Both the position numbers and the translations under genes were made by a program. From assembly GCA_946545035.1 (NCBI GenBank), contig CAMNND010000001.1, positions 34,809 through 98,808 on the forward strand: a DNA stretch of 64,000 nt, given 5' to 3'. The stretch comes from an uncultured Clostridium sp. (GTDB taxonomy: Bacteria; Bacillota; Clostridia; TANB77; CAG-508). Position 1 is the first letter of the stretch. Each line of letters starts with the position of its first letter. The notes beneath the pieces are model-generated. The model had not been told where the DNA came from. It did no database searches and worked only from the letters and a program-made list of their open reading frames with translations. Shown one piece after another: positions 1 through 41,355 of the stretch.

Positions 1-3000
1 CTATATAATCCAGATTTTTGAAATAACCAAATTACTTGTCATGTAACCTATAATAACCAAAGTTTATATAAAGACACTAGTTTTTTATTTACTAAAATAG
101 GTGAAAATGGTACCAATGGTACCGATGTTGTTGCAAAAATTTATTATACTGGTGACGATGTTTTAAATACCTTACATAGTCAGCCATTAACCCTTTATGC
201 TCAAGATATAGATAATGGCACTGATATTACTACAAAGGCTATGTTTAACGTACCAGATGGAAATGGTAAAAGAAGAGCTTTGTCAGATGTATTAGCAATT
301 ATTGGCGAAAAAGGTATTTTAGATGTCGCTTTATATCAAAAAGGAAATACCCTATCATCCAATAATTATGCTTCAACTTATCCTCGTTGAAATTTATTAG
401 GGAATATATCTTACTCACAAAATTATGGTAAGTATTTTACTATTGAGAAAAATTCAAATGATTCATACGACATAAATTGAAGTGGATCAGTTAATAATTC
501 TCAAAAAGATTTATATCAAATTATTAAAGCAGAAGTTCAATTAAAAACTGGACAAACTTATTATGCAACATACAATATACCTTTTATTTGATATACAAAA
601 GATAGTGGATCTATTTTAGATGTTAATAATTTAATTGCCATTGACCGCAGCCATTATTTAAGTTCAATCTTATATAATGCGGACGGCCGCAATCCTATAT
701 ATAATCATAATCAAGGATTAAAATTTATTAATATTCCAGAGAATATTGATAGAATTTTATGAGAAGCTAAAGGTGACATTAGTCTTCTCTTGGAAGATAA
801 TACTTCAACAAAGATTTTTGAAAAAACAGAAAACATAAGCGCAGAAGAAATGATTTTTATTTTACCTGACGATATATATGACGGTGGAATTACAACTAAT
901 CATATTCAAGTTTCTTTTTACGATAAAGATAAATTAATTGCTATAGCTTATGTTCCTATTTATATGAGTCTCAACACTTTTGGACTTGCTTCTTTAAACG
1001 CATGAGATGGTAATCATATTACTATAAATGAAGATGAAGGATACGTTTTATCTCCACAAATAGGCGCTGGAGAAAAAGATGAAAATAATCGTTTTACTGG
1101 AATTTTAATGGGTAAAACAGAAGGCGAGGTTGGGCATACTGGAGAAACAGAAGCTCAAACTGGCTTATTTGGATATGTAAATGGTATTCGATCTATCTTT
1201 TTAGATGCTAAAACAGGAAATGCTACTTTTGGATTACCAAATGGATTACATTTAGATGAAAATGGTAATTTAGAAAATGGTAACAATTTTAATGAAGGAA
1301 GAATAGAACTTCGTCCTGGAAAAGAAAGTGTCATAGGTGGATGGACTTTAGGAAATAGAAGTCTATACTATACTAGTAAAAAAGAAATTGATGATAATAA
1401 TAATGAAAAATGAGTTTATTCTGGGCAGTTAGAAAAAAGACAATTACATGATTATATTCCTAATTGAAAAACAGGTTTAATTGAAAAGGATTTGAAAGAT
1501 AATTATTTTAAACATCATGAAAGAGATATTAAATATGATGAATCTGGTATATTATTATATGCTGGAGAAAGTCCTTATATTTCAATAAAAGGTCGCCCTT
1601 TTTCAGAAACTGAAGTTCCTGAAAATGAAATGTCAGAAAAAGAGTCTCTTATTAGACCAAATGATTCAATTGAGTTACAGTTAGATACAGCAACTCCTAC
1701 TTTATTTACTATCTTTAGACATAACGGAGGTAATAGAGAGGGTATTGAAGGAGTCAGTGGTAATGAAGAGCAATATGAATTAGGTTCCCGCACATTCTTG
1801 GCTGGTATTAACAGTCAGGGTGAATTTATTGCAAATAGTTTAAGAAGCGCAAATACAACCGACATTATAATACCTGCAGGAAGTGATGAAGAAAGAACTT
1901 GAAAAGCGGGTAGCTTAATTACAAAATTTGCTATTAACGCCTTAAATGCTTTTGATGATTTTGCTTATGATCCTGTTCCAAAAACTAGCCATATAGGTTT
2001 TGAAATTACAGCAAATGAAGAAAATACTTTAGCTCATTTCTTTACCAAGATAAATGGTTTAAAAGTAAAAGGTAGTAATGAAATTGATGAAAACTATAAT
2101 CCTACATTACATATATCTGGTGGATATACAGATGAAGATGGAGAATATAGTAGACCATTAGCTTTACATGGTAGAAATATTCAAATGTATGCACTTGATG
2201 GGTCTGGAAGAGATCCTTTAGATGATAAGTTTTTATCTGAAACGGATGCTGGATTAAAAATTTCAACAGACGAGGCTCGATTACAATTAGGATCAACTCA
2301 TTTTAATCTTTTTAGAGATACTACTGGCACAAATAATATTAACGCATTAACGACCGCGAATGATTTACAGATTAATGTAGGAGAAGAAGTTTTAAATGAT
2401 TCTATGGTTGAAGAGTTTAATGCTGGTAATAATAATTGAAAACCTTTAAATACTCAACTTGATTATAATAAATATAAAAAGTTTAGTGCAGAAGATTGTT
2501 ATGTTCAAGATAAAGATTCTTTAGATAAGGTCGTTCGTCCTGTTTCTAATAAATATGTTAATTTAAGTCAAATGAATAAGTATCTTAATAGGATTAATAG
2601 TAATATGATTATGAAATATTATATTGATCCAGAAACTCGTATTTTTACTTTAATGGATGAGTTGAATTTTTATTATAAATCTAATCTTAGAGGGAAAGAT
2701 GAGTATATTTCAATTAATTCGTATAATAATAATATTTATTATAAAAATATTAAAAATGAAGTAAAAAGAGTAGAAGATATTTATAGATTTGATGCAGATA
2801 GTCAAAATTATTATGCCCTAAATTCAGAGACAAAATCAGAATTAAATAACGAATCTTTAAATCAATATTTCGTTTTTCAAGAAAAAGATATAGATACGCA
2901 GATAAATGAACAATATGATTATATGTCTGAAGAAAATCTTCTTAATAATTTATACTATATAAATGAAAATAATTTAGATAATTATATAAAGATTGATAAT

Positions 3001-5412
3001 TATCGAGATATTTATTATAAAAGACAAGATCCAGATGGAAGAACAATATATATAAAAGAAAATCAAATAAATTCACAAGAAAGACCTTTTATTATAATAG
3101 AAGATAAAGAAAATATTTTTGGTTATATAGAAAATGTTCAACATTATTGGAGAGACTCTTTTGATGAATTTAATTTATATTTTAAAATTAATATTGATGA
3201 AAAAGCTTATTATGTTACTAATTTTATCCTTGATACTTATTCAATGGATGAAAATAATGAATGACAGTTAAGTGATTCAAAAGAATTCTTTTCAGAATTG
3301 CCTGACCATAGTTATTGGTATCAAAAATATTATGAAGAGACAGCTAGCGCAACTACTAGATATGTTTTAAGACCTACTTTTATCGATGATTATCCAGAAA
3401 ACGGCCAAGTTGAATTTGAAATGGCAAATTTAAGTATGGTTGATTTTAATACAGATGCAAGCTTTAATGACACTAATATTTTAAATATTTATAAAAAATA
3501 TGAAGGTGAAATTGTAGATGGCATGTCTCAATATCTTTTAAAAGATGAAGTAGAACGAGCAAAATCTTATTATTATTATAAGAATAGTACAAATTTTTAT
3601 TCTAAATTAGAAAATGATGAAGATAACCAAACTTATTATAAATTAAAAGATTTGGACGGCTTTATAGAAATAACTACTTTAGGAGAATTATTTTATTATT
3701 CTGAAAAGTTTAATTCTTATATTTCATTAGATAATGTAGATACAGAAAACGTATATCTTTTTGAAAATAATAGCTATCAAGAAATAGAAAACATTGAAAA
3801 TAATAATTATAGTTCAATATATAGAAGATTTATTGTTCCAAAAACTTTTTCTGATTATGAGTGGATTAGTTTAGATCAATGATTGGGTGGAGAACTTTTA
3901 AAAGAATATTGCTTAACAGAAGAACAAGAATATATTCTAAAAGAGAGTTTTCCAATAGATCAAACTTATTTAAAAATTAATGATAGATATGTTTTTATTG
4001 ATTTTAATCTTAATAATTTTAATTATATTTATATAGAAGATAATAAAAGTTCAGAACCTTTCTTTATTTCTATTAATTATTTTAAACAGATTGCAGAAGA
4101 TAAAACTAATCGATGATTATTCTTAGAATCAGAAGTTTATGATATTGGAGATAAAGGTTGAAAAGAAGAAAATGAATATGGAATTATATATAATGAAAAT
4201 GCCATTATAAGACAAAGTCCTATATTTAAATCTTATTCAAATCAAGCTTATTCTTTATATAATGGAACTTATAAAAATTATATTCAAAAAGATAATAATA
4301 TTTATACTAAAATTGATATAGATAAAAATATTGATATTAAAAATACTAGATTAATAAATTTACAATCTTATAAAAATCTAGATTTTACGCTATTATCTTC
4401 AAGTAATACTTGCGAAGGACAAATTTCTCTGCGAAATACCTCTTCTAGCGATTTTTACTCTATAGATGGAAAAGAATATTCTATTTATGGTCAATTTGTC
4501 CGTGTTGAAAAAAATAATGAACAAATTAATAAATACGGGCTACTTTTAGGAGATAATTTTACTTCTTTATTAGGTGAAGATTTGAATTACATAAAAAGTA
4601 AAAAACAAATTAAAATTACTTCTGCTGAAACAGGAAGTGGCCTTATTTATACAGCTGAAAAACCGCAAATATTATTAATTGCAGGGGAAGACGGAGGTAT
4701 TAAATCTACAAAATTAATTTTAAATTCTTCAGATAATGGATGAAAAAATAGAAAAGAAGATAGCTCTATTTTATCTTATCCCGCATTTAAAGTTCAAAGT
4801 AGATACGGATATATTGGAATTTTTCCTTGGTATGAAACAGATAAATCTTATTCAGAACAATTTTATGTAGGAATGAGTCAAATTATTACACACGGATTAC
4901 AGATTCAAGGAAAATATGGTAATAATAAAGATATAAATATTGGATTAATGGTATCTAATGATATTCAAGCAAATAAATTTATAGGGCAAAATTGAAACAG
5001 TTTATTTAGTTTTCCTCAACCTAAAAAAGGAACTTCTATATCTTTTGGAAGTGGTGGCAGTTTAAGTTTTGGTTGAGAAAATCAGTCAAATTTAACATTT
5101 AGTGTACCAAAAATTACAATAAAAGAAAAAGGTCAACCTTCTATTACAACCAATTCTGTATCTATTACTCTTCCAAATGCACAAAATATATGAGATGCGA
5201 TTTTTAGACGTCTTGAACGTTATATAAATAATCGAGGTTTTTTGACGACTAGTGCAGCTGACAGCCGATATGCGAAGAAGTCTAGTCTTAATAATTATGT
5301 AACTAGTGTTAGTGGTACTCTTACTGGATCACATATTAGCATTAATTATCATAAAAACGGTGGTACCTATAGAGTTATTAATGGTAATATAACATCAAAA
5401 GCTACAAAATAA
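1..5412 (+). CDS. Giant virion structural protein, 5'-truncated by window edge (>1800 aa in window). One continuous frame-1 ORF read through ~13 in-frame TGA codons, terminates at TAA 5410-5412. N/Y/D-rich, beta-type composition (not tape-measure-like).
   Basis: ORF-track pieces 790-1005, 1108-1413, 1492-1902, 2185-2439, 2572-3264, 3298-3882, 3883-4116 are all in frame 1 and separated only by TGA. I translated the joins by hand and found no TAA/TAG in frame 1 from position 1 to 5412. Followed by RBS+ATG of the next gene. Confidence 0.55.
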
Positions 5413-5426
5413 GGAGATAAAAGGAT

Positions 5427-5916: not shown

Positions 5917-8900
5917 ATGGCGACAGTATTATCAACACTTTATCCTCCTCTAATTGGAACTTTTCAACCAGCTTTTGAATATGACGAAGGACCAGAAATT
6001 ACATTTACTATTTCTAATTATAATTCATATTTAGGAATTAATCATTTACATATCTCTTTAGTTAATCAAAAAACTAATCAAAATGCTTTAGCAACCAATT
6101 CAAATAATGCGTTTTCTGTTCCAACAGGAACTTATTTAATTGATGGTATTTGAATTGTCCCATTTCAGGATAGTTATTTTAATGAATTTGATACTGAAAA
6201 TAATCTATATAAAATAAAAATCCCTAAAACTATTTTAAAAAATCAGGCTACAGAATTCGTAATTGACTATTACTATAAAGTTCAATTAAGATTTGATTGC
6301 GTTACAGACGATATTATAGCTTCCGCAAATGTTTCTGGAACAGTTTTTAATTCTACTTATTTAAACATTTTCAGAAGTTATTTTTCTGAATGATCTAGTA
6401 TTTCATTATTAAAAGCAGTCCCGCATACAGAAATTCAGTTAACAAATTTTACCATTGTTAACTCTAATGGGATAGCTAACGATAATTTAAGAAATAAAAA
6501 AACACCTCAATTTACACCAGGCGTTATTCCAATTGTTGGTAAATTAGTATTTTTTAAAGATAATAAAACAATTAATGCAACAGATGCGGGAAAAGAGTGG
6601 ATAAAAGACTATCAAATAAAAATTTTTAGAGAAGAAGATGATAATTCTCAAAATTTAATTTTAGATAGTGGTATCATTTATCCAGATGCCTATAAATTTA
6701 GTGAAAACAATTTAAATATTTCTTCTATTTCTCAATCCAGCTATTGGACAAATAATTTTTCTTATTTAGCTGATTTAACAGATAAGGATCCTAATTATAA
6801 TTACATATTAAATATAACAATTCATACAAAAAATAATTTTACCGCAGAAGAATCTTTTAACTTTAAATTAATAAATGCTTTATTTACACCAAATTGAACT
6901 TGATCTTTTAATAAGAAAAAGCTTCCTTATTATGGAGACATAATAGAAAAGATAGTAACAGAAGAAGATGGAGAAATTAGCGGAGAAGTTAAAGTTGAAC
7001 CAGAATTAGACACTCAATCAACAAATTATTTGTATCAACAAGAGCCTGGATATATGTTTATTCGCCGAGCCGATAGTTTAAGTGATTTTAAAAATTGAAG
7101 TATTATAAAATGTGTAGCTTGTTCTACTCCTTTACAACCAGTTAAATTTACAGATAAAACTGTAGGTAGCTTAGTGAGATATAGATATTCCGCGCAATAT
7201 TTGTGCTTTAGAGGCGGTGTTCAAACATCTGTTAATAAAAGTCCTATAATTATTTATCCTGACTTTCATGACATTCTAATTAGTGCTGGAGATAGACAAT
7301 TAGCAATTAGATACGATGGACAAATTAACTCTATGACTCCTGTTGTAAATAGAGTTAAAATAGACACTCTTGGCGGACGTTATCCTAAATTTGCAGAAAA
7401 TGCTAAATTAAATTATAAGCAATTTAATCTATCTGGATTAATAGTAGCAGAAAGTGATTATAATAGAAAGTTTTTAAATGATTTAGATTATTCAGATGAT
7501 ATGCACGCCTATGATAATGCTCAAAAAGGAACCTATATAGTTCGCAATGATACAGTTTTAGAAAATTTTGATTCTGAACACAAAAAAGGAACTTATACAA
7601 AGGATATTGAAAATAAAACATCATGGATTGATAAAGAAAAAGAGTCTTCTCAAAAAAATACTAGTCACGATATTTATCCTTCAAATAATTGATGGTGAGA
7701 ACGAAAATTTAGAGAAGAAGCTGTTAAATGATTAAATAATGGTCAGCCAAAACTTTATCGTTCTATGACAGAAGGAAATATGATTGTTATGTTAGACGGT
7801 ATTTCTCTAACTCCAAACAATCAATTAGGGCGAAGAATTTGAAATTTTTCTTGTACTGTATATGAAATTGGAGACGGGTATAATCTTGAGTTATTAGATA
7901 GTCTTAATATTTTTAATATTCAAAATGAATATGAGCAAAAAAATATTGACTTAGAAGAAAAATATGGAGAAGATATTGACTCTGATTCTTTGATTAGAAA
8001 AACGGTTACTGAATTAGGACAACAATATGAAATCCAAGCAATAAAAGATACTCAAAATAATTATAAAGGATTAGTAGAAAATGTTATTGTCAATAATATA
8101 AACTTTTTATATCAAGGTTTAGGGAAAAATTATGTATATAAAAAGAATTCAGCATTATTACATAACTTAAAGATTAATTTTACATCGCCTCCACAGTATT
8201 ATAATTTAAATTCAAATATTGAAAAGATTGATATAGAAGAATATTTTTCAAAACGAAAAGATATTGATCAATTTATAGCTACCGCAGAAGAAGATGAAGA
8301 ATTCTTTTTAAATAATGATGTTGGTTTAGGATATAAAATAACTCTTTCATATTATGATTCAAGTAACGGTACTTCAACAAAAGTTCCTATTTTTGTTTCC
8401 TCAACCGATGGCCGCACAGGATATTATCAAGTTCCTTCTAATTTAATTATTTCTGAGATTGTACTATATGATGACGCTACAGCTATATTAGATTATTCTT
8501 TAACATATAAATTAGATTACTATAATGTAGATATACCTGATTTTTATTCTCAAGAAGAAACATTAGTCGGACAAGTTAACGATTACTGGTCTTTTGGAAC
8601 AAATATAAGCACTTATATTAATGAAAAATATAGAGTTTATAATTGAACAGAAGAAGATAGCTATGAATATTCTGAGGGATTAATTTATTGAAAAGGTATT
8701 AATATTGAAAGCGATCCTTACAGTATATATGAAATCAGTTATAGAGAGAGTGTCCCTGGTGTTGTTCAAGCAGGTGAAAAAAATACTTATATAATTCCTA
8801 GAACTGGAACTTTAAATCTATTACAAAATTATGAAGTTTCTTCTTGCTGAGCCGCAGGTAGGCAAATGTTTGTTGTAGATGAAAAAAGAAAACCTTACTT

Positions 8901-9456
8901 AGATGAATGAGAATGCGTTCTTGATGAAACAGTAACAAATCCATATGATCCTGGAAATCAAATTTCTGATGGAATATATTGATATTTAGTTAAAGGGTCC
9001 GATGATATTGATTTAGATACAGATGGTAATAATAATTATGTTTTAGTAAAAATTCGTGTGGCAGATGGTAATCTTTATATTGTAAATAATGATTCTGAAC
9101 AAGGAACTATATTAAGCTGAGATGATTTTAATAATGGTGTCTTAGATATATATGAAGATTGATTTAATTTAGATTCAATAAGCAATTGTATTATAGATAA
9201 TATTAAACAACCTGATTACAATAAAGTCTATAGAATTATTGATAATAATTTTGTTTCTTATTATATGATTTATTATTTAAATCAAGGATGATACCCAATA
9301 GATTTTATTGATAATTCAAATCAAGATGTTATGCAAGCAAAGGTTCCCGTTTCTGGTTTAATCGAATATAAAGCCGATATTTACAAACAGGGATGAGAAA
9401 TCTTAAATGGGCAAAAACGAAACATAAGCGCTACCAATAGTGATAATAATGGTTAA
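5917..9456 (+). CDS. Large virion structural protein (~1179 aa; tail/baseplate-like), TGA-recoded
   Basis: RBS ggaggataaa + ATG 5917. Frame-1 track ORFs 5917-6153, 7174-7692 and 7990-8646 are joined only through TGA codons. I hand-checked no TAA/TAG in frame 1 across 6154-7174 and 8647-9453. Stop TAA 9454-9456. Confidence 0.55.
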
Positions 9457-9472: not shown

Positions 9473-12226
9473 ATGCGTAAATTTTATCCTTATCTTGAAG
9501 AATCTTATTATCCTAACTTGAATGAAGAATATGAAAAACAACAATTTTTATATTCTCTAAATAAAATTGTTAATCAAAAACAATATGTTAAAATAACTTT
9601 ATTAAATTGAGAAGAAGATCCCATCAAAGAAATTGATGGGATCATTTCCTCTGGTAGTATTAATAAAGATGGAAACAGTGCAGTTCGAAGATCTTGTAAC
9701 TTATCTTGCTCGGTTAATGGTGGCGCTTATAATATTGATAATATAGAAATGGACTTTGCTTTAAATAAAAAAGTCTTTATTGAAATAGGCATTGAAAATG
9801 TTACAAATAAATATCAAGATTATCCTATTTTATGATTCCCGCAAGGAGTTTTCTATATTAACTCATTTAGTGTAAATTCTTCTACCTCTTCTGCTGTTAA
9901 TCTTAACTTATCTTTAAAAGATAAAATGTGTCTATTAAATGGAGATATAGCAGGACAATTACCCGCAACAGTTCGATTTGATATGATGACAACCCAATTA
10001 TCAGATGGGTCTGTCGTTGAACAAAAAGTTTTATATTATAATATTATATCGGAATTATTAAATCATTGGGGCGGAGAAGATTTAAATAATATTATTATTC
10101 AAGATATTCCATTAAGAATTCGTAAAGTTGTTCAATGACAAGGAGAAAATCCTATTTATTTAAAACAAGGAGGATTTGACGTTGTCGATGTAGATGATGT
10201 TGACACCAATTCATATAGCATCTCTATAGAAGTACCAGAAGATAAAGAGAATTGATCTGAATATTCCATGGGAGACGATATAGGCTATGTCTATAGTGAT
10301 TTTGTTCCTTTAAATGAGATCACTGGAGCTGCGGGGAGCACTATTTGCTCAGTTTTAGATGAAATAAAAAATCAATTAGGTAACTATGAATATTTTTATG
10401 ATGTATTTGGTATTTTTCATTTTAGAGAAATAAAAAATTATTTAAATGAAACTCAAGCAAGTACAATCTTACAAGAATCCGCAAATACTGGCCGACATGT
10501 AAATTTGAATGAGGGTCAGTTTTTATTAGATGGAGGGTCTGAAACTCAATATTTAATAGAAACGACTGTTCCAAAAACAGTTTATAATTTTGACTCAAAT
10601 GAAAACTTAACTTCTATTAGTGTAACTCCTAATTACAGTAATATAAAAAATGATTTTATCATAGATGGAATCAAAGAAAGCACAGCTTCTGATTCTCAAT
10701 ATGCTTTGAGATATAGATGTGTAATAGATGAAAAGCCAGAAATTTTAGGTACAAAAGATAATAAACCTTATTATGGAGTATTTGATAATATAATTTACTA
10801 CACTTATCCAGAAGAATTTGAAGGTCAAACTATTGCAGAAACCAATAAATTAAGTTGTTTTCATGAATTCTGAGCCGGATCAGAAGAAGAGCCTTATTTA
10901 ATTTTACCAAATGTTGGTATAGCAGATCATATATATCGACTTGAAGAAGATGGCATATCTACTTTCTGAAGATGAGACGGCATTGTATATAAACCTGTTT
11001 ATTTAAATTTAAATGAAGATGAATTAGAAGAATATAATTCTCAATTTTATAGTGTTAGTTCAATTAAAGAATTATTATCTTTATATCAAAATTTTAAAAC
11101 AGATCAAATAAAAATAGAAAATGAATATAATGAAACAGGTAATCAAGCTGAATATCTAAGAGCGCTAGAACTTTTAAATATTGATTTTATTGATAAATTA
11201 AATCGTATTATAAAAGATTTACCTGAAAAAGCTAATAATTGAATTCTAGAAAAAAAGATTAATTTATTTAAAGATAATGTTGATGTAATAATACAAGTAT
11301 TAAAAAATATTTTAATTGAAAATAACATTTTAATAGAAGAATCAGAAGAAGAAGAGCAAGAAGAAAAAGAAATTGAAGATTTATCTGAAAATACAGATAA
11401 ACCTTTTACTTTGACCCGAGAACCAATCTTATACAGTTCTTCTCTAAAAGATCCTTATACAAAAGAAATATTAGGTCCTTATTATGCTAATGACTGACGT
11501 ACTGCATTATTAATTTATGGATTACAGGCCAGTATTAATGGTACAGATCCAGGACCTTATTTTGACGATCTAGAATATGCTTGGCCAGAAGAATACGATC
11601 TCCGCAGAGAAAATCAATGCTTCTATGGAGAAAAAGAAGATAAATCTGTTCATTATAAAACTTTAACATCAGGTAAATTTTATTTTGATATAATTGATGC
11701 AAATTCATCTTCTCTTGGAGAATTTAGTGTTCAAAATATTGGTCGAAGAACAAGTGTAATTTTTAATGATAAAGTTAATTGTTTATTTGAACCAGAAATT
11801 CCAAATATTGTTTTTCTAAATACAGATAACCCAAAAGTAAACTGATCTGATAATACGACCATTACAGAATTAAGAACTATTACAGATATGGCAGAAATGT
11901 TAAAGCAACAGCGTCAAGAATGTATCAATAACGGACAACCATATCTTCAAGTATCAAATGAGATATATAATAACTTATCTATTGGAGGATATTTAAACGA
12001 TGCATATTCAGCATTAAGATATGAATTGTTTTCACATACTTCTTATCAAAAAGTTGTATCCATAAGTGCTTTGCCGGTTTTTTATTTAGAGCCCAATAGT
12101 CGAGTTGCATTAAGTGACCCTACAACAAATACTTATGGAGATTTTATAGTACAAAATATTAGTTTAACGCTTGGTCCAGGAGCTAATTTATCTGCGACGT
12201 TAAATGAAGCATTAGAGAGATTATAA
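9473..12226 (+). CDS. Large virion structural protein (~917 aa), TGA-recoded
   Basis: RBS aaaaaggaggtaaaataa + ATG 9473. Frame-2 track ORFs 9926-10138, 10268-10873 and 11888-12226 are joined through TGA codons (hand-translated, no TAA/TAG). Stop TAA 12224-12226. Confidence 0.55.
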
Positions 12227-12239: not shown

Positions 12240-13175
12240 ATGGCAGTAACCTATGGTATGGGGCAATATCGTATGAAACGAGGAACTCCTTATATAACTA
12301 AACTAAACGGAGAAAATTCTATTACTCCTCAATTTATAGAAGTACAAACTAATACGTATACATATAAAGATGTATATTTTAATTTAGGAAATGAAACAAT
12401 TCAATATGGTCATACTTATTATTTGGAATTAACTTTACCACGGCACGTTCAGTATACAAGTGATATTGATATTAAAATTTGTGGTACTGCAAATGGTACA
12501 ATAGATATTACTAATCAGTATCAAAATATAAAACAAATTATAGTTCCAAATTCTTTAGTAAGTACAAATTTTTACCAAGACGTATTACTATATGAATATA
12601 ATAACAAAACAGAAGTGGGACTTGTCACTAATGCAACAGATAATACTGTAGGGCATGTTTTTAAAAATAATAACAATTATTTTTTAATAACACAAAACGG
12701 TAAACCTCAATTAGAGAAATATCAACCTTTAAAAGTTATTGAATCTTGAAAATTAAAAGAAATGGATGAAGATACTATTACTTATAATATGATTTTTTCT
12801 CCAAAATTTGATTCTATTAATTATTCTTATTTATATTTAGAAATAGATAGAAATAATGATTGGAATACTAGTATTGAATATATTGAAAATGATAAAACTT
12901 ATAAAGGTCTTTTTATTGACATTAATAATGCTAAATTAGATATTTATGAAGTAAATAATCTTTTAAATAATGATACATGTATTCCACAATCTTCTTTAAA
13001 TCATATTGGTGTATGAGGCCATCCTGAAATGTATTTAGCTATCAATGGAGAACAAATTCAAATTGGAAAAAATGGTTTCTATGAATTAGATGACTTCAAT
13101 ATTACAAATTTAGGCATAGTTGTTAAAGATGAAAATATTGATAGATTCAGTATTGATTATGAATTTGCAACTTAA
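12240..13175 (+). CDS. Hypothetical structural protein (~311 aa), 2 in-frame TGA
   Basis: RBS taaggaggtg + ATG 12240. Track ORFs 12231-12749 and 12762-13016 share a frame. TAA at 13173-13175. Confidence 0.5.
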
Positions 13176-13197
13176 AAGAAAGGGGAGGTAAAACATT

Positions 13198-14943
13198 ATG
13201 GCTTTAGAAAGTTTTTATGGTGGAAAGCCTGGCTATTCCCCTGTCATTAAAGGTACTTTTAAGTATATTAGTGAAAATGATAGTAAATATCGAAACTTAA
13301 CAGAAGACCAAAAAAATGCGGCAAAGGCTGCAAATGAAGTTATGAATCTCTGTTTTCAGGATCCTGAATATAAAGATGTTTGATATGGAGAGATATGTAT
13401 TATTAGTTCAGACTCTATGTATGATGCTAATAATGGCAAGATTTTTAGACGTACTTTAAAGAAACAATCTTCTTTAGATGAAACTTATGGAAGTCTATAT
13501 GCGGAATATCTTGGACAAATAGTCGGTATGCCTGGTGGTTTACCAAAAGTTGTATTTAATACTATTGATACAGTTAAAAATCAAGCTGCCAATGCAGAAA
13601 ATGATATTTGGTATCCAACTGGTGTAGATGATAATAACGTAGTAGAAACAGATTATAAACCTATAGATGATACAAGTACGACTTCATACCCCGCAACTTT
13701 AAGTGGGTCAGAGGGTATAGAGTTTGTACCTGGTATGCAAAAAAATAATAATGTTACAATCTATAATGACAATCTTCAATATACTTGGTTACAGATATTA
13801 GATCCACAATCTAATCAATATGAAGCAGATGGTAGCGCTTCAACTCTTCAAATAGGTCTTAAAATTCCTTATTTATATCTAGATACTCCAACAATTACTC
13901 CTGTCTCATATTTTAATGATCCAAAAATAACTGAATCAGATATAGGTCAAGATAATAAGCATCATCCATTTTATAGAAAATATAATATTTCTATTCCAGA
14001 TGGTCTTAGAGGACTTGGAATAAAAAATTTAAGAATAGAAACAAAAGAAAGTCTACAAGGAACTAACCTTCTAGATCCCACAGCTGAAAATTTCTTTAGT
14101 TATGATGCTAGTAAACGCAACATTATTATAAAAGAAGATGCGCTATATGACCTTACAAATTATAATAATGATAGTCCTTTTTGAGTTTATGATTTAGATG
14201 TACCGAATAAAACAGATGAAAGCTTAATGGATAGTAGTTCTTATACTTGTTATGCGGGAGATTATCATAAAATTTCAGATGTTACTTTAAACTCAAATGG
14301 TTCTCTAAGTTTTACTTCAAACTATGGAGAAACCATTACCACAAAAAATAAATTAAAATGGATTACTGGAACAGAAGTTGTTACAGATGTAGATCAAAAT
14401 GATTATGGTAAATTTACTATTAATTATAATTTTAATCCATCAAGTAATAATTCTTCTGTTAATCAAAATAAATCTGATACTTATCATTTACCTTTTGTAA
14501 AAAGAATTTTTGCTTATACTTCTTCTGAAGAAAAAGATGGAGAAGAAATTAAAATTGAATTAGTTAATGGAGATGGTGGAATAAGAACTTTAACATTAGA
14601 AAAACCAACAACTCCAAATACGCCAGCAGAATCTTATTCTTTAAAATATCCTACTTCAGTAAAAATTATAGAAAAAGCCAATGATGACCAGTATTATTTC
14701 TTACAAGCAGAATATAATGATGGAGATAAAAAAGAACTAGGTCGAGTTGGATTAAGAGCTAGTATTGATGGAATAGCTTCAACTATATATGTCGGCCAAT
14801 TAAATTCAAATGGAAACATTGAACGAATACCAGAATATCTTCCTGATAATGTTAGAGAAGAAGCTCTTGTATTAGTTGATGAAATGGTTGCGGTTACTGA
14901 TAATATAACCTCTAATCTTTTTCCATCTTTTAATGTTTCTTAA
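13198..14943 (+). CDS. Hypothetical structural protein (~581 aa), 2 in-frame TGA
   Basis: RBS aaaggggaggtaaaacatt + ATG 13198. Track ORFs 13198-13383, 13417-14184 and 14227-14943 share frame 1 and are joined through TGA. Ends at TAA. Confidence 0.5.
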
Positions 14944-14964
14944 TGTTCAAAAAGGAATTTAATC

Positions 14965-15315
14965 ATGTGAATTAAACAATATAAATATCCTTTTACCGAT
15001 GTTATGGAAGATAATAAAATTGTATTATCTTTTGAAAATGTAAAATTTGTTCAAATAGGAATGGAGTGCCCGCATTCCATTCCTATTTTTTTATATGATA
15101 ATGAATTAACAGATATAAATAATAAAACTTTAAATACGCAGATAGAAATTAGTGAAACTCTTAATGGGACAGTAATTTCAAATTATTCTTATAAAATAAA
15201 TTCCTCAGATATTCTGGAATTTAATAATTTAAATAAAAAAAATTTAACTATAAAAATAGAGAATCCAGAAGATCCATATACTATTATTACAATAGCTTAT
15301 GAAAAGGAGGATTAG
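14965..15315 (+). CDS. Hypothetical protein (~116 aa); the start could instead be the ATG at 15004
   Basis: Weak RBS aaaaaggaatttaatc + ATG 14965 (second codon TGA), in frame with track ORF 15004-15315. Stop TAG. Confidence 0.35.
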
Positions 15316-15321
15316 AGAATT

Positions 15322-15831
15322 ATGCCAACTCAAAAATTAATACATCAATTTAAAGACCCTAATAATAATAACTGAGTTAAATTTTGAACCTTTAATGAAA
15401 ATGGAAACAACAAAATTGAACTCAGTTCAAATGTTAGTGTAGATAGTAACAATTTAACTAATATAAATAGTCTAATTCAAAAAGTAACCAACCCAGAGTT
15501 GCCGCAATCTTTTTGAAAAGTAGTTTCTACTGAAACTAATGGATATGCGCCAAAAGGGCAAGCTAATTGTTTTCTTTATATAAATGAAGATGGTAATGCT
15601 CAATGGGTTAATCCAAAATATGATAAAATTACTTACAGTATAACAACAAATGTTCAAAAACCTACGGAAGAAATCATAGGACAAGTTCGAGAAGATGGAA
15701 AAAAGAATATTTTACAACCTAGAGGACAAAGCACTACGGATTTCATATTAGATTTAAACGATTTCTTATGAAATAATGTTTCTGTTACTCTTGGGAGTGT
15801 TAATAATTCTACTCCTTTAACTATTTCCTAA
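15322..15831 (+). CDS. Hypothetical protein (~169 aa), several in-frame TGA
   Basis: RBS aaaaggaggattagagaatt + ATG 15322. Open in frame 1 through TGAs to TAA 15829-15831. Confidence 0.45.
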
Positions 15832-15995
15832 TGTTGGGCAAAACTCTATAAAAGAAATATTGTAAATTATAATTAATAATGATTGAAAGGAGATGTAATT
15901 TGAGTGATTTTAATAACTTATTAACACATTATCCTTTACAAGAATTAATTACAATATTTTTTCTTTTTGCGTCTGTTGTAATTTCAATTTGAAAA

Positions 15996-16391
15996 ATGTA
16001 TGATTTTTTTAATCAAAAATACAATGAAGCATTAGAAAAAAGAGAAAATGAAATAGAATGAAAAGAAAAAATATCTAATGCTCTAAATGATCTTGATTCT
16101 AAAATAGATAATCTTAATCATCAAAATCAAAAAATTTATAAGAAACAAGAGCAAGTAGATGCAACATTAGCTCTTGTTCAGGAAAGAATGCAAGAAAATT
16201 CAAGGTCTTTCTTAATCGATGCTCATCATAAATTTTGTTATAAGTATAAAAAAATTGATGATTTGAATTTACAATCAATTGAGCGTAGATATTTATATTA
16301 TAAAACTGCGGGAGGAAATACTTTTATAGATCATTTAATGGAAGAAATACGTTCTCTTCCAAGAGTAAACCTACTTACAGATGAGACATAA
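15996..16391 (+). CDS. Coiled-coil protein (~131 aa from the ATG at 15996). Probably the C-terminal part of a membrane-anchored protein whose N-terminus (TTG 15899, strong RBS) lies in another frame; see the frameshift finding.
   Basis: Frame 0 is open from 15948, first ATG at 15996, TAA at 16389-16391. Upstream frame-2 ORF TTG15899-TAA16012 has RBS aaaggagatg. A T6/T5 tract at 15953-15970 lies in the overlap. Confidence 0.4.
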
Positions 16392-16406
16392 TGGAAGGAG
16401 GATAAA

Positions 16407-17201: not shown

Positions 17202-17206
17202 AAAGT

Positions 17207-17644: not shown

Positions 17645-17664
17645 ACGAAAGGAAGATGCATATG

Positions 17665-18966: not shown

Positions 18967-18987
18967 TAATTATTTTAAAAATTAATT

Positions 18988-19026
18988 AAGGGGAAAAATT
19001 TTAATATTTTTCCCCTTTTTCTTTTA
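18988..19026 (+). terminator. Rho-independent terminator: AAGGGGAAAAATT-loop-ATTTTTCCCCTT followed by a T-run
   Basis: Perfect 12-13 bp inverted repeat followed by TTTTTCTTTT, seen directly. Confidence 0.7.
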
Positions 19027-19045
19027 TAAAAAGGAGGGGAATTAT

Positions 19046-25500: not shown

Positions 25501-28500
25501 ATGCCACAGCTGATACGGGGTACCTTTCCGTTAACAGCTTAACGTTCTCGAATACTGCGGCAATCCAGTCTGGTGCAGCAGGTAAGACGATATTCCTGAA
25601 AGGAACCATCTCTGGCAATACATTTACAATCGATTCAACGAACGTATTTACTACAGTCGTTCCAACAAGCGAGGATGGCTTCTTCTACATTCCGCTAGGC
25701 ATTATGACCTCCGCGACTGTTGGATATTTCGAGTCATCTAAGGATCTTTACGCCTATCTGGACGGTCGATTCCGTCAGGTTACGCCAACTGAGATTGTAG
25801 CCAGTCAGCGAATTTACTATCGCTCTAAGGTGTCTGGCACTGTCCCGAAGCCGACCGCATGGATCACCCTAGCCACAAATAAGTACAATGATACTGTTAG
25901 TGTCGGTAACAGTGGTTGATCTACGAAAGTCACTCCAATTGCAGCATCCAAGGCCGAGAATGTTGCTAAGTATTTATATTTATATACATGTGAGCAGCGA
26001 AAAAGACTTGACGGTACAATTGAATGTACGGCTGTTACTCTTGATGAAAATACTACTATTATTGATGGTGGTAATATTATTACTCATACAGTTACAGCTG
26101 AACAACTCAATGCAACAAGCATTAATGCTAGCAAAAGCTTGACGGTTGGCGCGATGACCGACGCAGCCGCGAGCACGATTCTGAACAGTAACGTGCAGGT
26201 CGGAGGGAGGAACCTGTTGAGGCTAACCCAAAGTCCCCAAGTGTCCGAAACTGCATGGTCTTATACGGCGGTGCCGACGAGCATTGATGGGTGGACGAGG
26301 TATGCCAACGCGGTGACTTTGGAGCGTACAGATAACGGTATAAAGGCAACCCACAATACCACAAGCACTAGCGACGGTTTTGTTGTACCACTTGTCACGT
26401 ACAATGCCGTAACAGGCGGAGAGAGTCTTTCCGTTTCATTCGAGTATCGAACCAACATGACCTCAATCGGAACGCCATATCTTCTCGCCACAACTAACGA
26501 AGGTGGTACCACTGGTAATACCCCTCTTGGTCACAGCGTTTCGGTAACAAAGTCCGAAACCGAGTGGGCTAAGTTCAGTGCTATTTGGACATTCCCCACA
26601 GCAACAAATAAGGTCTATGCATTCCTCCTTCTGACTTATCTAGCAACATCAGGCGGATGGATAGAGATTAAAGACAGCACTCTCAAGCTCGAACGCGGCA
26701 ACAAGGCCACCGACTGGACTCCTGCGCCAGAGGACCAAACAGCATATGTGGATGCAATTCAGGTCGGCGGAAGAAACTTGCTGCGTGGTACGGCTGCGAT
26801 GATGTCTGGCACAGGCCGTTGGAATACAGGAACCTTCCGCGCATCTGGTGGCACGCTTTCAAACGTTACTACTACTGATCTACCTCTTCCAAGCGTTTCT
26901 AGTGCCTTGCGAGTTACAAATAATGGTAGCTCCGCAGCCAATGTTGGTTTTGCACAGGATGTAATCTCCGGGCTTGTCGCTGGCGAGGCGTATACCGAAA
27001 GCGGGTGGATTCGCGCGAGTGCTGCGATGGAAGGATATTTTCAACCGATATGGAAGTCTACTGCGCAAATGACGTCGACCAACAATGTTGCTGGAAAACG
27101 ATTTCATCTGACAACTGATTGGCAGTGGTTTTCGTGGACGGGAACGCTTAATGGAGATCAGGCCAGCACATACAGCGGCGGATATGCTTATGCTATAAAC
27201 TGTCCCGCAGGTGGATGGTTCGAAGTCTGTGGTTTAAAGCTTGAAAAAGGTAACAGAGCTACTGATTGGACACCCGCACCGGAAGATGTAGACTCAGCAA
27301 TAGAACAATCTGTCGCTGGACAAGGTGGATTTACAATTCTTTGAAATTATGAAAATTTTACAACAGCAAACAATGGAGAAGGATATATCTGTGCTTTAGA
27401 TCCAATAACAGGTACTAAGTCGGATTCTGATGGCTGAATAATGTGAAATGGTGTAAAGCGAACTATTCCAAAAGGTATGATTAATCCTAATACGGTACAT
27501 CCATATAATACTCCATGTTATATAGTGTGTAGACTTTCATCTGCAGACGCTACAACCGGAACTAATTATATTGTTTCATATAATTCTGGTTGAAAAGGTG
27601 GAGTAATTAATGCGGGCGCACTTTCTGACTGAACTTGAAATGAAGCTACAGATATTATTATTGGTAAATATGTCGAAACTGCATCTGAAGCAGCTTTTGT
27701 TGAAATGGAAATTTATAATCCTCCATTATCATCTAAACAAATTACAACTCAAAATATTACCGCTTCAAGAGCTAATAGTACAGCTACTACCGCGAATAAT
27801 AAACTTGTAGCTTTCCGTGGTGTATGTTCTACAGCTGCGGGCACCGCAGCGAAAGTAGTATCTTGTACAGGTTTCGCGCTTACACAAGGTTATTCTATAA
27901 CAGTATATAATACAACAGATAACACTAGTGCAGCAAAATTAACTCTAAATGTGAATTCTCTTGGAGCAAAAGACGTTTGAGTTGCAGGCGCTGTTACTTC
28001 AGATACTAATCGATTACTTTGAAAAGCAGGTTCCACTATAACTTTTGTTTATGATGGTACTCAATTTAGAGTTGCAGATAGTCCTGCATCGCTTTATGGT
28101 ACTACTTGTACAATTGCAGAAGGAACTGCTGCAAAAACTACTACGGCTAATGATTGTGTAATTTTTAAAGGTACACAAATTACAGTACCTATGTCTAATT
28201 CTAATACAGCTACAAGTCCTACTCTTAATGTTTCCTCTCTTGGAGCTACAAATATTTATCATGGATCTGGCACTACAGGTCCTACTAAAGCCAATGGCTA
28301 TGCGTGACCTGCAACTGCCGCAGTAATATTTACTTATGATGGTAAATTCTGACGTTTTGGTAATCAAACATTTATCGATGGTGGAAATATTCTAACTGGA
28401 ACAATTGCTGCAGATCGTATTAAAGCTAATGTTATTAGCGCTGTAAATAATGGTACAGGTACTATTAATGCAGATAAAATTAATGTTTCAGCAATTAAAA

Positions 28501-38548: not shown

Positions 38549-39208
38549 ACCAATATTTTCCATATACAAGAGCATATCCAGCATATCGTTCTTTAAAAGT
38601 ATCAATATTAAGACCGATAGTACTAGTTAAATTATACATATAAACCATATTATTTTCTACTTTATAAATAACATAAGGCGTTGCATTAAATCAATCATCT
38701 GATCCAAATCAAATAATAATTGGATAATTATTACTTCCAACAGTTAATAAATAATCAATATTTTTATTAGAAATATTTTTTACTGATAAATCAATATCGT
38801 TTTCATCTAAATATATCAAAGAATTTTGATATAACATATCTGGACTTATTTTTCCTTGATGAGCAGTTCCTTCTTGATCAACTTCTTCAAAAAAATCTCA
38901 ATAATATTCATCTATGTCTACATCAATTCCAAATGTTTTCATAACCAAGAAAAAACATCCGTTTGTATCAGGATCAATAAAATGCCCTTTCAATTCTCTA
39001 TCTATATGCTGTATTGTTAAATCATTATTTTTAACTGTTGTTCAATCTGCTTCTTTATCAAAAACTGTAATTCCTGATATAGATTTATTAATTGAAACCG
39101 TAGAATTTATCTTTTTATCAAATAAATAAAATAACAATACTAAAATTAGTATTAAAATTAAAATTAGAAAATAATATAAATAACTAGAAAGCTGATTTAG
39201 TTTTTTCA
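38547..39208 (-). CDS. Membrane-anchored hypothetical protein (~220 aa; N-terminal signal-anchor MKKLNQLSSYLYYFLILILILILVLLFYLF), 5 in-frame TGA
   Basis: Hand translation of the - strand: ATG at ~39208 (overlaps the RuvC 3' end), open through TGAs to TAA at ~38547. Confidence 0.4.
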
Positions 39209-39672
39209 TCTTCTAAAATCCCCGCATACCCTAAACAAATTGCATCTGCTTCATCTTCTGTTACATCTTTATCAAAAAAATCTTTTACAAATTCTTGAGC
39301 CTTTTTCTTTTGTTCTGCGCGAGTACGACCAAATTTAATTCCATGCTTATCTTTAATAATGCTGCGCCAATGCGATGGACTTAATTCAGCAATAGGAATA
39401 CTACTACTAAAATAAATAATCATAGCTTGAATATAAGCTAATTTTTTATAAGTTTCAATATTAGATTGATATTGAATTCCTTCATAATAAATTTTTTCTG
39501 GATGATATTGTTCTATTAAATCATTTAAATAAATTACAAAAGAATACAATCTATCTTTCATAATTTTATTTGCAGGAATAGAAAAGTGCCCACTCGCAAT
39601 TAAGGTTTTATTATCATAAATAGCTCAACCAGTCGTGCGACTGGCTTGATCTAATGCTAATGTTCGTCGCAT
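39184..39672 (-). CDS. RuvC-like Holliday-junction resolvase (~162 aa); N-terminal LALDQASRTTG-W(TGA)-AIYD and C-terminal DEADAICLG motifs
   Basis: Track ORF 39184-39561 extended upstream through one TGA to ATG ~39672 with RBS caggagagtaaa. Motifs typical of phage RuvC-family resolvases. Confidence 0.55.
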
Positions 39673-40140: not shown

Positions 40141-40440
40141 TTAAACCTCATTTCAAGGTGAAACATTTTCAATAGGAATATTATGTTGCATTTTAAAATC
40201 AATTGTGTCTAGAGGAATATCAGGAGCTTTAGCATCATTGAATACAAGAACACATTTACAAATCCACCATTCTTCAACAATTTCGCCACCAGATTTTTTA
40301 GTACGATAAGTTTGTGACCAAGAATTTAGAATATATGCATTATCGCGAGCAAAATTCTCATAGTATTTATGAAGTTCATTTGCATCCTCTTCAGATTCAA
40401 CTCGAATCTCCGCGGTATTTTTAATTAGATATTTAATCAA
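40141..40440 (-). CDS. Hypothetical protein (~99 aa), 1 TGA near the C-terminus
   Basis: Track ORF 40153-40440 (TTG start, RBS gaggagg) extended past TGA to TAA ~40141. Confidence 0.4.
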
Positions 40441-40699
40441 TTGAAGCCTCCTCGCTATTCATTTTTGCTTTAACAAATTCAAGTTGATTGGCTTGACTTA
40501 CAAAATATTGAATATAATCTACAGGGCCATGATAATCAACTTCTACTTCTTCTTGTACACTATTGGAATAATTTTTAACAAATTCCACAGATTCTTGCGG
40601 GACTTTAAGTTGAGAAATTTTATGCATTTCTCCATTATCAAGCACCTCAAAAATTTGAGTAAAATCTACTGGATTAGCTAAAACAATTAGTTTATGCAT
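40433..40699 (-). CDS. Hypothetical acidic protein (88 aa)
   Basis: Track ORF, ends TAA. Confidence 0.45.
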   Translation of the reverse strand: MHKLIVLANPVDFTQIFEVLDNGEMHKISQLKVPQESVEFVKNYSNSVQEEVEVDYHGPVDYIQYFVSQANQLEFVKAKMNSEEASID

Positions 40700-41069
40700 T
40701 TTAAACCTCTACAATCATTCATTCAGCTTCGAAAAGCATGAACATAAATACTTCATTGGTTTTATCTTTAATTCAAACTTCAAAAGCATCTTCACCATGC
40801 TGATACTGTATTGCAAGAATTTGTCCTCTTTCCTCCAGCACTTCTCGCAATTCTTGAATAGCTTTTGTAAATTGATTATCTGTAATATGAAATAAAGTAA
40901 AATCTGAACGTTCTTTACACATTAGCATAAATCAACGATTTTTATCTTTACTAAATCAATCACCAATTACATTTCAATTATGATTCATCATGTCTTCACT
41001 TTGTGGAGGAAGCTGTGACATAACTTGTTTGTTAAGTTCATATAGGTTACCAAGTGCTACTTCTGCCAT
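40700..41069 (-). CDS. Hypothetical protein (~123 aa), 5 in-frame TGA
   Basis: Hand translation: RBS gaatagaggtgtttat + ATG ~41069, open through TGAs to TAA ~40700 (adjacent to the downstream start). Confidence 0.4.
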
Positions 41070-41079
41070 ATAAACACCT

Positions 41080-41355
41080 CTATTCTATATCTGCTTTTAA
41101 AAATTTAACCTGTCCATTACCCAATTTTACAATTTTCTTTTCAGGTATATTATAAGTTTGTATTGTACAATTATTCACATCTACTTTTTGAGTAGAAAAA
41201 TATTCAAATAAAGACTTTAAAGAATCACACCCATAAAGATATTTTTCTTGACTATCTATATATAAATGTTCATGGGGTAAAGGATAACGAATTCTACCAT
41301 CTTTATAGAATCATGGACCTCCACCATCTGGTTTTTCATATCTATAAACAAGCAT
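41080..41355 (-). CDS. Hypothetical protein (~91 aa), 1 in-frame TGA
   Basis: Hand translation ATG ~41355 to TAG ~41080. Sits directly downstream of the - strand promoter 41379-41407. Confidence 0.35.

Follow-up and report, generated by a model that had tools for sequence, protein, structure and literature searches.

The recoding of stop codons in late genes is an established phenomenon among gut phages, of which the Agate phages have been described as being recoded at TGA (Borges et al., bioRxiv 10.1101/2021.08.26.457843; Nat Microbiol 2022; all statements on this work refer to its accessible part). Here, a 64-kb stretch of DNA with a GC content of 33% was analyzed (part of contig CAMNND010000001.1, GenBank assembly GCA_946545035.1; referred to, in its full length, as the window), for which an earlier inspection of the letters alone, hereafter the sequence-only reading, had proposed that TGA is a sense codon throughout the virion, lysis and resolvase genes of a phage. 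TGA is in fact a sense codon equivalent to tryptophan (Trp) in these genes, and the window very probably represents about half of a ~125-kb, SPbeta-related rumen or gut phage that uses two genetic codes, with TGA being reassigned to Trp in its late genes by the phage itself. As such, the recoding is a further, Agate-like instance of a published phenomenon.

The sister contigs of the window's phage measure 125.1-125.5 kb, while Agate genomes are of ~127 kb and originate from cattle and other animal guts. In both cases TGA encodes Trp in structural and lysis genes and the replication genes follow the standard code, close relatives with the standard code exist, and a suppressor tRNA is present with no tryptophanyl-tRNA synthetase (TrpRS) or release factor 1 (RF1) having been found. 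The genes for which preferential use of TGA is reported in Agate phages also have equivalents in the window, being a homing endonuclease in the early region (g43), a tail protein upstream of the lysis cassette (g24) and a transmembrane protein (g26; codon counts in Table 1). Agate phages are called virulent in the preprint, whereas the replication genes of the window's phage resemble those of the temperate SPbeta group, and the extra arm of a tRNA with anticodon UCA (tRNA(UCA)), seen in the clade of the window's phage, is not described in the accessible part of the Agate paper. Judged by these features, the window's phage appears to match the published Agate pattern.

Jade phages, treated in the same work, likewise reassign TGA to Trp, have predicted Firmicutes hosts and keep the genes responsible for the code change in standard code. 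They carry genes for tRNA-UCA, TrpRS and RF1 upstream of the lysis cassette, whereas TrpRS and RF1 were not found here in ~131 kb (specified below) and tRNA(UCA) is located in an array of 12-13 genes far from the lysis cassette. In comparison with Jade, charging would here have to use the TrpRS of the host, possibly helped by the extra arm with its CCA-containing loop. The crAss-like and Lak phages (code 15, validated by metaproteomics; PMC9523058) also possess late genes for structural proteins and lysis in which a stop codon is reassigned, early genes in the host code, and a suppressor tRNA with the same proposed role in timing late and lysis expression, but differ in that TAG is reassigned to Gln, the hosts are Bacteroidota, the lineages are unrelated and some encode release factor 2 (RF2).

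Cellular code 4, as used by Mycoplasmatales/Entomoplasmatales, insect endosymbionts and Eggerthellaceae metagenome-assembled genomes (MAGs), shares with the window UGA read as Trp via tRNA-Trp(UCA), a low GC content and the loss of TGA as a stop. It is genome-wide and permanent and involves the loss of prfB, whereas here part of a phage genome is concerned and TGA is excluded from early genes. With the SPbeta group, the window's phage has in common a YorL-type DNA polymerase III (Pol III) alpha subunit (39% identity, with 99% of SPbeta YorL covered), Pfam matches to YorF and YorH, a dUTPase of the YosS/YncF type (E = 1e-45) and a genome of 125-135 kb; it differs in that the SPbeta group uses the standard code, shows no nucleotide similarity and has largely unrelated structural genes. 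These protein similarities place it, as a distant member, among the large Bacillota phages of the SPbeta-like kind.

Results

Release of TGA as a stop fuses the late reading frames

A fused-frame test was performed in which TAA and TAG were kept as the sole stops and TGA was released, the outcome being compared with that of translation table 11. The longest frames then extend over 3498, 1803, 1279, 1184 and 917 codons, the maximum under table 11 being 1279, and release of TAG or TAA in place of TGA over the whole window gave nothing comparable in frame length. At the base composition of the window, the chance of encountering 3498 codons without TAA or TAG is ~1e-89. When TGA is taken as sense instead of stop, greedy coding density increases from 0.70 to 0.90 and the mean open reading frame (ORF) from 196 to 351 amino acids (aa). 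The fused frames are arranged head to tail, first on the + strand (1-38503) and then on the - strand (38547-41355), and each starts at an ATG following an AGGAGG-type ribosome binding site (RBS), while the TAA or TAG at its end directly precedes the next RBS. The proteins obtained by fusion across TGA are of >1803, 1179, 917 and 3489 aa, which bears out the sequence-only reading, where proteins of >1800, 1179, 917 and 3489 aa with ends of this kind had been described.

Frequent TAA or TAG codons inside the joined frames were looked for, and none was found over 13,514 codons, all interruptions being TGA; in total, the window contains 171 in-frame TGA codons over 31 genes. The claim that every stop is TAA or TAG is upheld, with 40 genes ending in TAA, 12 in TAG and none in TGA, yet the number of genes first put at about 60 is reduced to the 52 that could be delimited. 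At the TGA codons that would terminate 40153-40440 and 44308-44538 (both on the - strand) under code 11, relatives have an aligned Trp and conservation of the frame continues past the TGA. ORF A, to which the former belongs, has the C-terminus ..SP-TGA-NEV-TAA (40141-40155), with TGG at that spot in relatives; by this alignment its TGA is a conserved C-terminal Trp and not an old stop codon. The same TGA positions were found again in independent assemblies from different samples, and the window is 99.9% identical to a 112,901-bp ENA contig (sample label SHIW14-1).

The TGA codons are unevenly distributed. The block at 1-41379 comprises 32 genes, 28 of which contain TGA, with 163 TGA versus 71 TGG codons, whereas 17 of the 20 genes in the block at 41462-64000 are without TGA, the counts there being 8 TGA versus 89 TGG (Fisher's test against the late block, P = 1e-26). 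In the named genes of the replication and nucleotide module, from NrdD to GyrB (Table 1), TGA is absent as sense codon and as stop alike, and all eight TGA codons of the right-hand block are located in the small or mobile genes ORF B, g43 and g48. The range of 1-41355 originally proposed for the recoding is thereby retained for the dense block, and has to be amended in that TGA-containing genes also occur outside it (44176-44538, 56802-57785 and 63738-63986) and four genes inside it have no TGA.

TGA is equivalent to Trp

At 40 TGA sites for which standard-code homologues could be aligned, the majority residue is Trp in 25 cases, the background frequency of Trp being 1.4%, while Gly, Ser and Cys form the majority at a single site each; the same test applied to the window's own TGG sites returned a Trp majority at 53 of 80. 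Where the codons of relatives were compared with TGA (n = 369), TGA (209) and TGG (113) together accounted for 322, the remainder consisting of Tyr (17), Leu (12), Phe (5), four other codons (5) and gaps (7), and not one of the 369 comparisons placed GGN, TCN or AGY opposite TGA. Against unrecoded relatives only, TGG stands opposite TGA at 28 of 39 sites. The preference of the sequence-only reading for Trp over Gly (code 25) is thus supported.

A Pfam run with TGA masked as X recovered domains that span X positions in g25 (GH25, ELLD and PG_binding_1, in agreement with the endolysin proposed earlier), g17 (CBM_5_12), g27 (RuvC), g28 (dUTPase) and g43 (GIY-YIG), and in the latter four families all claims of TGA falling on conserved Trp positions hold. 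In g17, HTSQEG-X-EP..PAL-X (X being TGA) is aligned with HTSLAG-W-EP..PAL-W of PDB 1ED7, so that TGA encodes both conserved Trp residues of the chitin-binding domain. The TTG-X-A of g27 corresponds to TTGWAIF or TSGWAIF in standard-code relatives, the R-X of g43 to QARW or QERW, and the three TGA codons of g28 are opposite W, F and W of Bacillus subtilis YncF (E = 1e-45; PDB 2xcd). In GH25 alignments of g25, TGA coincides with the W conserved in DvS.W.G and in lWiA, and 140 of 148 comparisons with relatives have TGA or TGG at the g25 TGA positions.

The same holds for genes of the virion region. Two TGA sites of g04 are opposite W in a standard-code homologue, W is found at four of the six testable TGA sites of g05 (11-19 standard-code homologues), and the homologues of g06, g07, g10, g11 and g12 in standard-code relatives are intact code-11 ORFs with W at most TGA sites, the g05 homologue being likewise intact there. 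The internal motif GNKATDWTPAPED of g15 occurs in four copies, three of which employ TGG and one TGA, and the single TGG position of the holin gene g23 is TGA in seven relatives.

TGA is selected against in early genes

An exchange test was carried out between the window and 17 recoded relatives, with the exchange of A and G in third position, in codons for Lys, Glu, Gln and Leu, serving as the neutral yardstick; these relatives share ancestry and are not independent, and the P values are therefore nominal. Exchange of TGG to TGA amounted to 35/44 in the late genes (control 0.70), to 55/298 in NrdD, RecJ, primase and g42 (control 0.57), to 2/138 in DnaB, g39, AAA_24 and YorF (control 0.41), and to 0/305 in Pol III alpha (control 0.50). 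By this measure, late genes accept TGA as a neutral codon, while it is harmful in the genes needed earliest, and Pol III alpha and other early genes are under purifying selection against it. As a separate observation, Pol III alpha is TGA-free in all relatives compared and the set of TGA-free genes is smaller along some lineages: the contigs L010, L019 and L025, with homologues of 41928-43841, 48664-50439 and 50615-53206, have up to 7 TGA codons in NrdD and up to 10 in RecJ.

Many relatives of the window's phage are present in IMG/VR besides the 125,498-bp sister genome IMGVR_UViG_3300021400_000244 (L039), the polymerase of which is 98% identical to that of the window; a further sister contig is of 125,123 bp. 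Relatives at 65-68% polymerase identity, along with 39 further loci from genomes of 95-147 kb, use the standard code. In these, the same genes contain no in-frame TGA, coding density is ~0.9 under code 11, and TGA is the true stop of 11-19% of genes, a rate at which the complete lack of TGA stops among the window's 52 genes has P = 1e-4. The presence of the standard code in such close relatives suggests that the recoding is of recent origin.

These data bear directly on the possibility that the host itself uses code 4, whether of the Mycoplasmatales type or as a new walled lineage, and that the phage simply follows its host, with no switch in the course of infection. A GC content of 33%, kinship with Bacillota phages, MAG binning with 'Bacilli' (the GTDB class that includes Mycoplasmatales) and the TGA codons present in NrdD, RecJ, primase and DnaB of some relatives are compatible with this, and walled gut Eggerthellaceae with UGA read as Trp have been reported (PMC13462651), which deprives the endolysin of its decisive value. 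In a host reading TGA as Trp, TGA would be neutral everywhere, and the contrast observed between late genes and Pol III alpha would not arise, nor would TGA be expected to be missing from the 89 Trp codons of the replication genes, if three small or mobile genes are set aside. Such a host would furthermore have no need of a phage-borne tRNA(UCA), present in nine out of nine recoded genomes (see below), relatives at 65-68% polymerase identity follow the standard code, TGA serving them as a stop, and in a screen of 250,000 genomes UGA was read as Trp within the Bacillota in Mycoplasmatales/Entomoplasmatales only (PMC8629427). A code-4 host is accordingly considered improbable. The conclusion of the sequence-only reading that the recoding is phage-driven stands on the selection evidence and the phage-borne tRNA(UCA), together with the standard-code relatives, while the route by which it was reached, from endolysin to walled host to a host without code 4, is weak, given the walled Eggerthellaceae mentioned above.

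A tRNA(UCA) in the recoded genomes

A search for a suppressor tRNA and a release factor had been advised by the sequence-only reading, and succeeded for the former in sister genomes. No tRNA gene is present within the 64-kb window. The sister genome L039, walked from 29.9 to 97.4 kb, contains an array of 12 tRNA genes including tRNA(UCA), ~16 kb past the right end of the window, embedded among the small genes of a module that is almost free of TGA. By way of homologues of a 598-aa anchor protein, the corresponding region was retrieved from ten additional genomes (124-147 kb). tRNA(UCA) was found in nine of nine recoded genomes, i.e. in eight fetched genomes at the syntenic place and in the sister, and in neither of two standard-code relatives, one of which has an ordinary 74-nt tRNA-Trp(CCA). 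In the recoded genomes, the gene always lies within a module containing little TGA. The anchor closest to that of the window (87% identical) is from L111, which does have tRNA(UCA), and the tRNA(UCA) of L119 was missed by ARAGORN and found by a regular-expression search. We infer from the sister genomes that the window's own phage would carry the gene as well. A TrpRS or release factor gene was found nowhere in the ~131 kb covered (the window, L001/L002 and 29.9-97.4 kb of the sister genome, the ~28 kb at 97.4-125.5 kb of which lie outside).

All tRNA(UCA) genes are 95-97 nt long, with A1-U72, G73 and an encoded CCA end; A1-U72 is invariant in the eight that were aligned (8/8), and the acceptor and T stems are of 7 and 5 bp, respectively. 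The bacterial Trp identity set consists of G73, A1-U72 and a G-C-rich acceptor stem (PMC9976931), and the acceptor end of tRNA(UCA) conforms to it. Among 148 distinct phage tRNAs, A1-U72 and G73 are combined only in tRNA(UCA) and in two genuine tRNA-Trp(CCA) genes. Canonical tRNA-Trp and its laboratory opal-suppressor derivatives share with tRNA(UCA) the A1-U72 pair, G73, a G-rich acceptor stem and the CU-NCA-AA loop context, from which tRNA(UCA) departs in its anticodon (UCA, not CCA), its length (95-97 versus ~74-76 nt), an extra hairpin and, in three of nine genomes, a Ser-like D-arm. The 74-nt tRNA-Trp(CCA) of the standard-code relative can be aligned end to end with tRNA(UCA), the differences being that U takes the place of C34 and that ~22 nt are inserted in the variable region.

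That TGA might specify another residue, namely Gly (code 25, with an Absconditabacteria/Gracilibacteria host), Ser (in view of the long extra arm and G73) or selenocysteine (Sec), has to be weighed against this structure. Phages with code 25 exist, ARAGORN labels tRNA(UCA) as 'tRNA-SeC', and in three genomes, including L039, D-arm and anticodon stem are like those of the phage tRNA-Ser(UGA), the L039-type body being identical to the latter at 78 of 82 aligned nucleotides (95%). In two other genomes the D-arm is of the canonical tRNA-Trp type, the family aligns in full length with tRNA-Trp(CCA), and although the long arm is shared with type II tRNA-Ser, A1-U72 in all nine tRNA(UCA) genes contrasts with the G1 by which every tRNA-Ser of the 148-tRNA set begins, and TGA is not aligned with Ser. 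The site majorities (Trp 25 against 1 each for Gly, Ser and Cys) and the lack of GGN, TCN and AGY in the codon comparisons given above speak against all of these residues. Bacterial tRNA-Sec has an 8/5 acceptor/T arrangement. The 7/5 arrangement found here marks the ARAGORN label as an artefact of the UCA anticodon, and 171 TGA codons in 31 genes cannot all be accompanied by a selenocysteine insertion sequence (SECIS) element. A reading of TGA other than Trp is for these reasons judged very improbable.

Three further searches concerned tRNA(UCA). By blastn, it had no match in E. coli genomes; its one match in a GenBank phage (H26) proved to be an ordinary tRNA-Ser(UGA); and a generic search with the anticodon-stem pattern retrieved mostly unrelated tRNAs, revealing only the Ser-like body of the L039-type tRNA.

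Extra hairpins that resemble anticodon loops

The variable region of tRNA(UCA) contains an extra hairpin of 20-22 nt in all nine recoded genomes. Double changes affect its stem in six out of seven pairs, giving a covariation of 0.85 as compared to 0.03-0.27 in slid controls, a score that none of 500 shuffles reached, and each tRNA(UCA) on its own folds as a five-armed cloverleaf. The fold z-scores of the tRNA(UCA) genes are not significant, as is usual for tRNAs, and the structural evidence for the hairpin consequently resides in the covariation. The loop of the hairpin reads (G/U)UCCA(A/U)A with an invariant UCCA, the anticodon loop of tRNA-Trp being CUCCAAA.

A second tRNA of the same arrays, tRNA-Ile(UAU), has a comparable hairpin in its variable region in three genomes (Table 1), whereas those of L116 and L118 are of 74 nt and without it. 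Depending on the genome, its stem reads CGA/UCG or AGA/UCU, which corresponds to one compensatory change, and its conserved loop CAGAUAA compares with the CUGAUAA anticodon loop of tRNA-Ile(GAU). In both tRNA(UCA) and tRNA-Ile(UAU), U34 stands where the cognate synthetase would normally find one of its identity elements. We tentatively propose that the extra arm may show the canonical anticodon (CCA, or GAU in the case of Ile) to a host synthetase or modification enzyme, while the true UCA anticodon reads UGA; alternatively, the arm may be left over from duplication of the anticodon arm, reflect another fold, or act as a decoy for an anticodon nuclease. No published description of such an extra arm was found in a literature coverage that is incomplete, and this tRNA design, which lies outside the window, may be new.

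Several observations were made in and around the tRNA arrays. An 83-nt tRNA-Asn (L039 18424-18506) has a hairpin with a GAAA tetraloop in its variable region, and this tRNA, a tRNA-Cys (L118 18778-18852) and the tRNA(UCA) of L119 share an atypical T-loop, AGCGUUA and not UUCGAAU. At the end of the array (L039 19703-19782), an 80-nt Rfam match to transfer-messenger RNA (tmRNA; 64 bits, gathering score 47) covers tRNA-like ends only, the ~300-nt mRNA-like middle being missing, as in a mini tmRNA-like or a tRNA-Ala-like gene. At L039 10001-11467 and 17309-17425 and L002 1-3000, a Ro60/TROVE protein and an RNA ligase (PF09414) are encoded and the tRNA array includes a Y-RNA-like element (Rfam YrlA, whose 33.9 bits fall short of the gathering score). 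Relatives add a T4-type Rnl1 or RtcB to this set, which from these similarities looks like a module for RNA repair and quality control. Lastly, five unrelated phage contigs of 80-150 kb (L042, L046, L050, L055 and L062) carry amber-suppressor tRNAs (CUA) of 89-91 nt, of type II, with a body resembling that of tRNA-Ser and with U1.G72/A73 as an unusual acceptor end, and presumably belong to TAG-recoded phages.

Gene content of the window

The features of the window and the tRNA genes of related genomes are compiled in Table 1.

Table 1. Location of annotated features, with numbers of TGA and TGG codons; positions refer to the window unless a genome is named.
Feature	Location	Strand	Description	TGA/TGG
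g01	1..5412	+	5'-truncated large virion/tail protein, >1803 aa; TAA end	18/5
g02, g03	5427-5660, 5653-5901	+	Small genes	1 TGA apiece
g04	5917..9456	+	1179 aa; phrog_30026 match (unknown function)	18/5
g05	9473..12226	+	917-aa tail protein (PHROG)	10/2
g06-g14	12240..19546	+	Structural genes, all with TGA	1-4 TGA apiece
g15	19560..30029	+	3489 aa, repeat-rich, putative tail fibre/host-recognition protein; TAG end	33/35
g16	from 30040 (g16 and g17 span 30040..32332)	+	556 aa	6 TGA
g17	to 32332	+	203 aa, CBM_5_12 domain (Pfam E = 1e-13)	7 TGA
g18-g22	32512..35200	+	Small virion-region genes	0-5 TGA apiece
g23	35234..35581	+	Holin (PHROG E = 1e-16)	0/1
g24	35598..36944	+	448 aa, directly 5' of endolysin gene	7/0
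g25	36956..38503	+	Endolysin, GH25 + ELLD + PG_binding_1 (Pfam)	19/3
g26	38547..39209	-	N-terminal transmembrane segment	4/1
g27	39184-39672	-	RuvC-like resolvase (Pfam)	1 TGA
g28	39674-40138	-	dUTPase (Pfam)	3 TGA
ORF A	40141-40440	-	TGA four codons ahead of TAA	
g29, g30, g31	within 40141..41355	-	Dense recoding ends here	g30 5/0
Replication/nucleotide module	41462..63423	-	NrdD, Pol III alpha, RecJ, primase, DnaB, AAA_24, YorF-like, ThyX-like, ligase, GyrA, GyrB (Pfam)	
ORF B	44176-44538	-	120 aa, downstream of Pol III alpha; sense TGA is W in relatives	1 TGA
g43	56802..57785	-	GIY-YIG homing-endonuclease-like (Pfam), embedded in early block	5/0
g48	63738..63986	-	82-aa ORF upstream of gyrB; gene status uncertain; 82-aa gene called on ENA contig	2 TGA
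tRNA(UCA)	L039 17191-17287		Sister genome IMGVR_UViG_3300021400_000244	
tRNA(UCA)	L109 15459; L110 16446; L111 16199; L112 17083; L113 15430; L116 15573; L118 17416; L119 ~18147		Other recoded genomes	
tRNA-Ile(UAU) with hairpin	L039 16492-16582; also L110, L113		91 nt; same arrays as tRNA(UCA)	

The homologue of g01 in the recoded relative L107 has 3 TGA and no TGG codons. For a leftward walk from the window, IMG/VR was searched with 465 aa from the N-terminus of g01, TGA being read as W, and of the pattern matches obtained none was confirmed. For g15, a Pfam search returned no family and a blastp self-comparison no off-diagonal matches, and its coherence as one protein is based on the reading frame and on the GNKATDWTPAPED motif as a control. 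Its N-terminal part (19860-20760) contains ~15 tandem degenerate repeats of ~20 aa (..NYAHIxDGIIDNAxIDxxxVNxL..), beyond which four modules follow, each ending in KLEKGNKATDWTPAPED. The segment g14-g22 (19046-35200), which includes g15, has no counterpart in standard-code relatives, where other tail genes take its place, a comparison from which the segment looks like a host-recognition cassette that has been swapped.

Around the GIY-YIG gene g43, no group I intron was detected by Rfam at gathering thresholds over the whole window. Between Pol III alpha and RecJ (48413-48772, - strand), a frame of 120 codons free of TAA and TAG has five TGA and one TGG codon and may represent either a small gene with recoding or non-coding DNA. 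In sister contigs, the homologues of g39 and g40 are separated by a tRNA-Ser(AGA) gene, which may be accompanied by tRNA-Ser(GCU) (L007 3511-3693, L017 2491-2581), and the window has no such genes at this site (53691-54095).

Discussion

Considering the above, a sequence of events may be envisaged in which the early replication and nucleotide genes, written without TGA, would be readable by the standard code of a Bacillota-type host immediately upon infection, the code then being switched by the phage's own tRNA(UCA). This tRNA would build up after infection, be charged with Trp by the TrpRS of the host and, once charged, outcompete RF2 at UGA. TGA and TGG would then be interchangeable for Trp in the late genes, comprising those for virion, lysis, resolvase and dUTPase functions, and in the homing endonuclease gene, and full-length late proteins, such as the endolysin with its 19 TGA codons, would be made only after the switch. 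The genome-wide removal of TGA as a stop would avoid harmful read-through when the switch occurs. A walled bacterium of the Bacillota with the standard code is the probable host, as indirectly indicated by the strong Shine-Dalgarno sites (AGGAGG), the GH25/PG_binding_1 endolysin, the SPbeta-like genes and the binning with Bacilli MAGs. Taken as a host assignment, the MAG label itself ('uncultured Bacillales/Bacilli') was rejected as unreliable, the entries concerned looking like whole phage contigs binned with a MAG.

Several points weigh against the two-code interpretation. Three genes within the block considered early, i.e. ORF B, g43 and g48, contain TGA; some recoded relatives have TGA in NrdD, RecJ, primase and DnaB, and the boundary between early and late genes is not absolute; the contig of the window ends 1.7 kb past the 598-aa anchor gene, where the array begins; and the Ser-like body of the L039-type tRNA makes some mischarging with Ser possible. 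Pseudogenes, assembly or sequencing errors, or occasional read-through with no dedicated mechanism, to which the fragmented appearance and density of 0.70 under table 11 and the lack of a tRNA in the window might point, can be dismissed as practically negligible, seeing that TGA is the only interruption over 13,514 codons, its positions recur in independent assemblies of different samples, TGA and TGG exchange as synonymous codons do, leaky read-through could not support up to 33 TGA codons in essential genes (endolysin, tail proteins and resolvase), and the clade possesses a dedicated tRNA(UCA).

For practical purposes, the two-code interpretation implies that standard gene callers shred half of the genome of the window's phage, and that this phage and its many rumen relatives should be annotated with TGA as Trp in late genes and with code 11 in early genes. 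Beyond the published instances, the comparison shows in quantitative terms that TGA behaves neutrally in late genes but is strongly selected against in Pol III alpha, a contrast that provides direct evidence, on the evolutionary level, of two regimes of translation in a single infection. It also contributes a tRNA architecture with an extra arm copying the anticodon loop, of which no published description was found. Should this arm enable charging by the host, it would explain how phages without a TrpRS of their own can change the code, and thereby how a UCA tRNA is charged with no phage TrpRS, a question left open by Borges et al. in the accessible part of their work. A displaced copy of the identity anticodon would then constitute a new way of encoding tRNA identity, and a ready part for genetic-code engineering.

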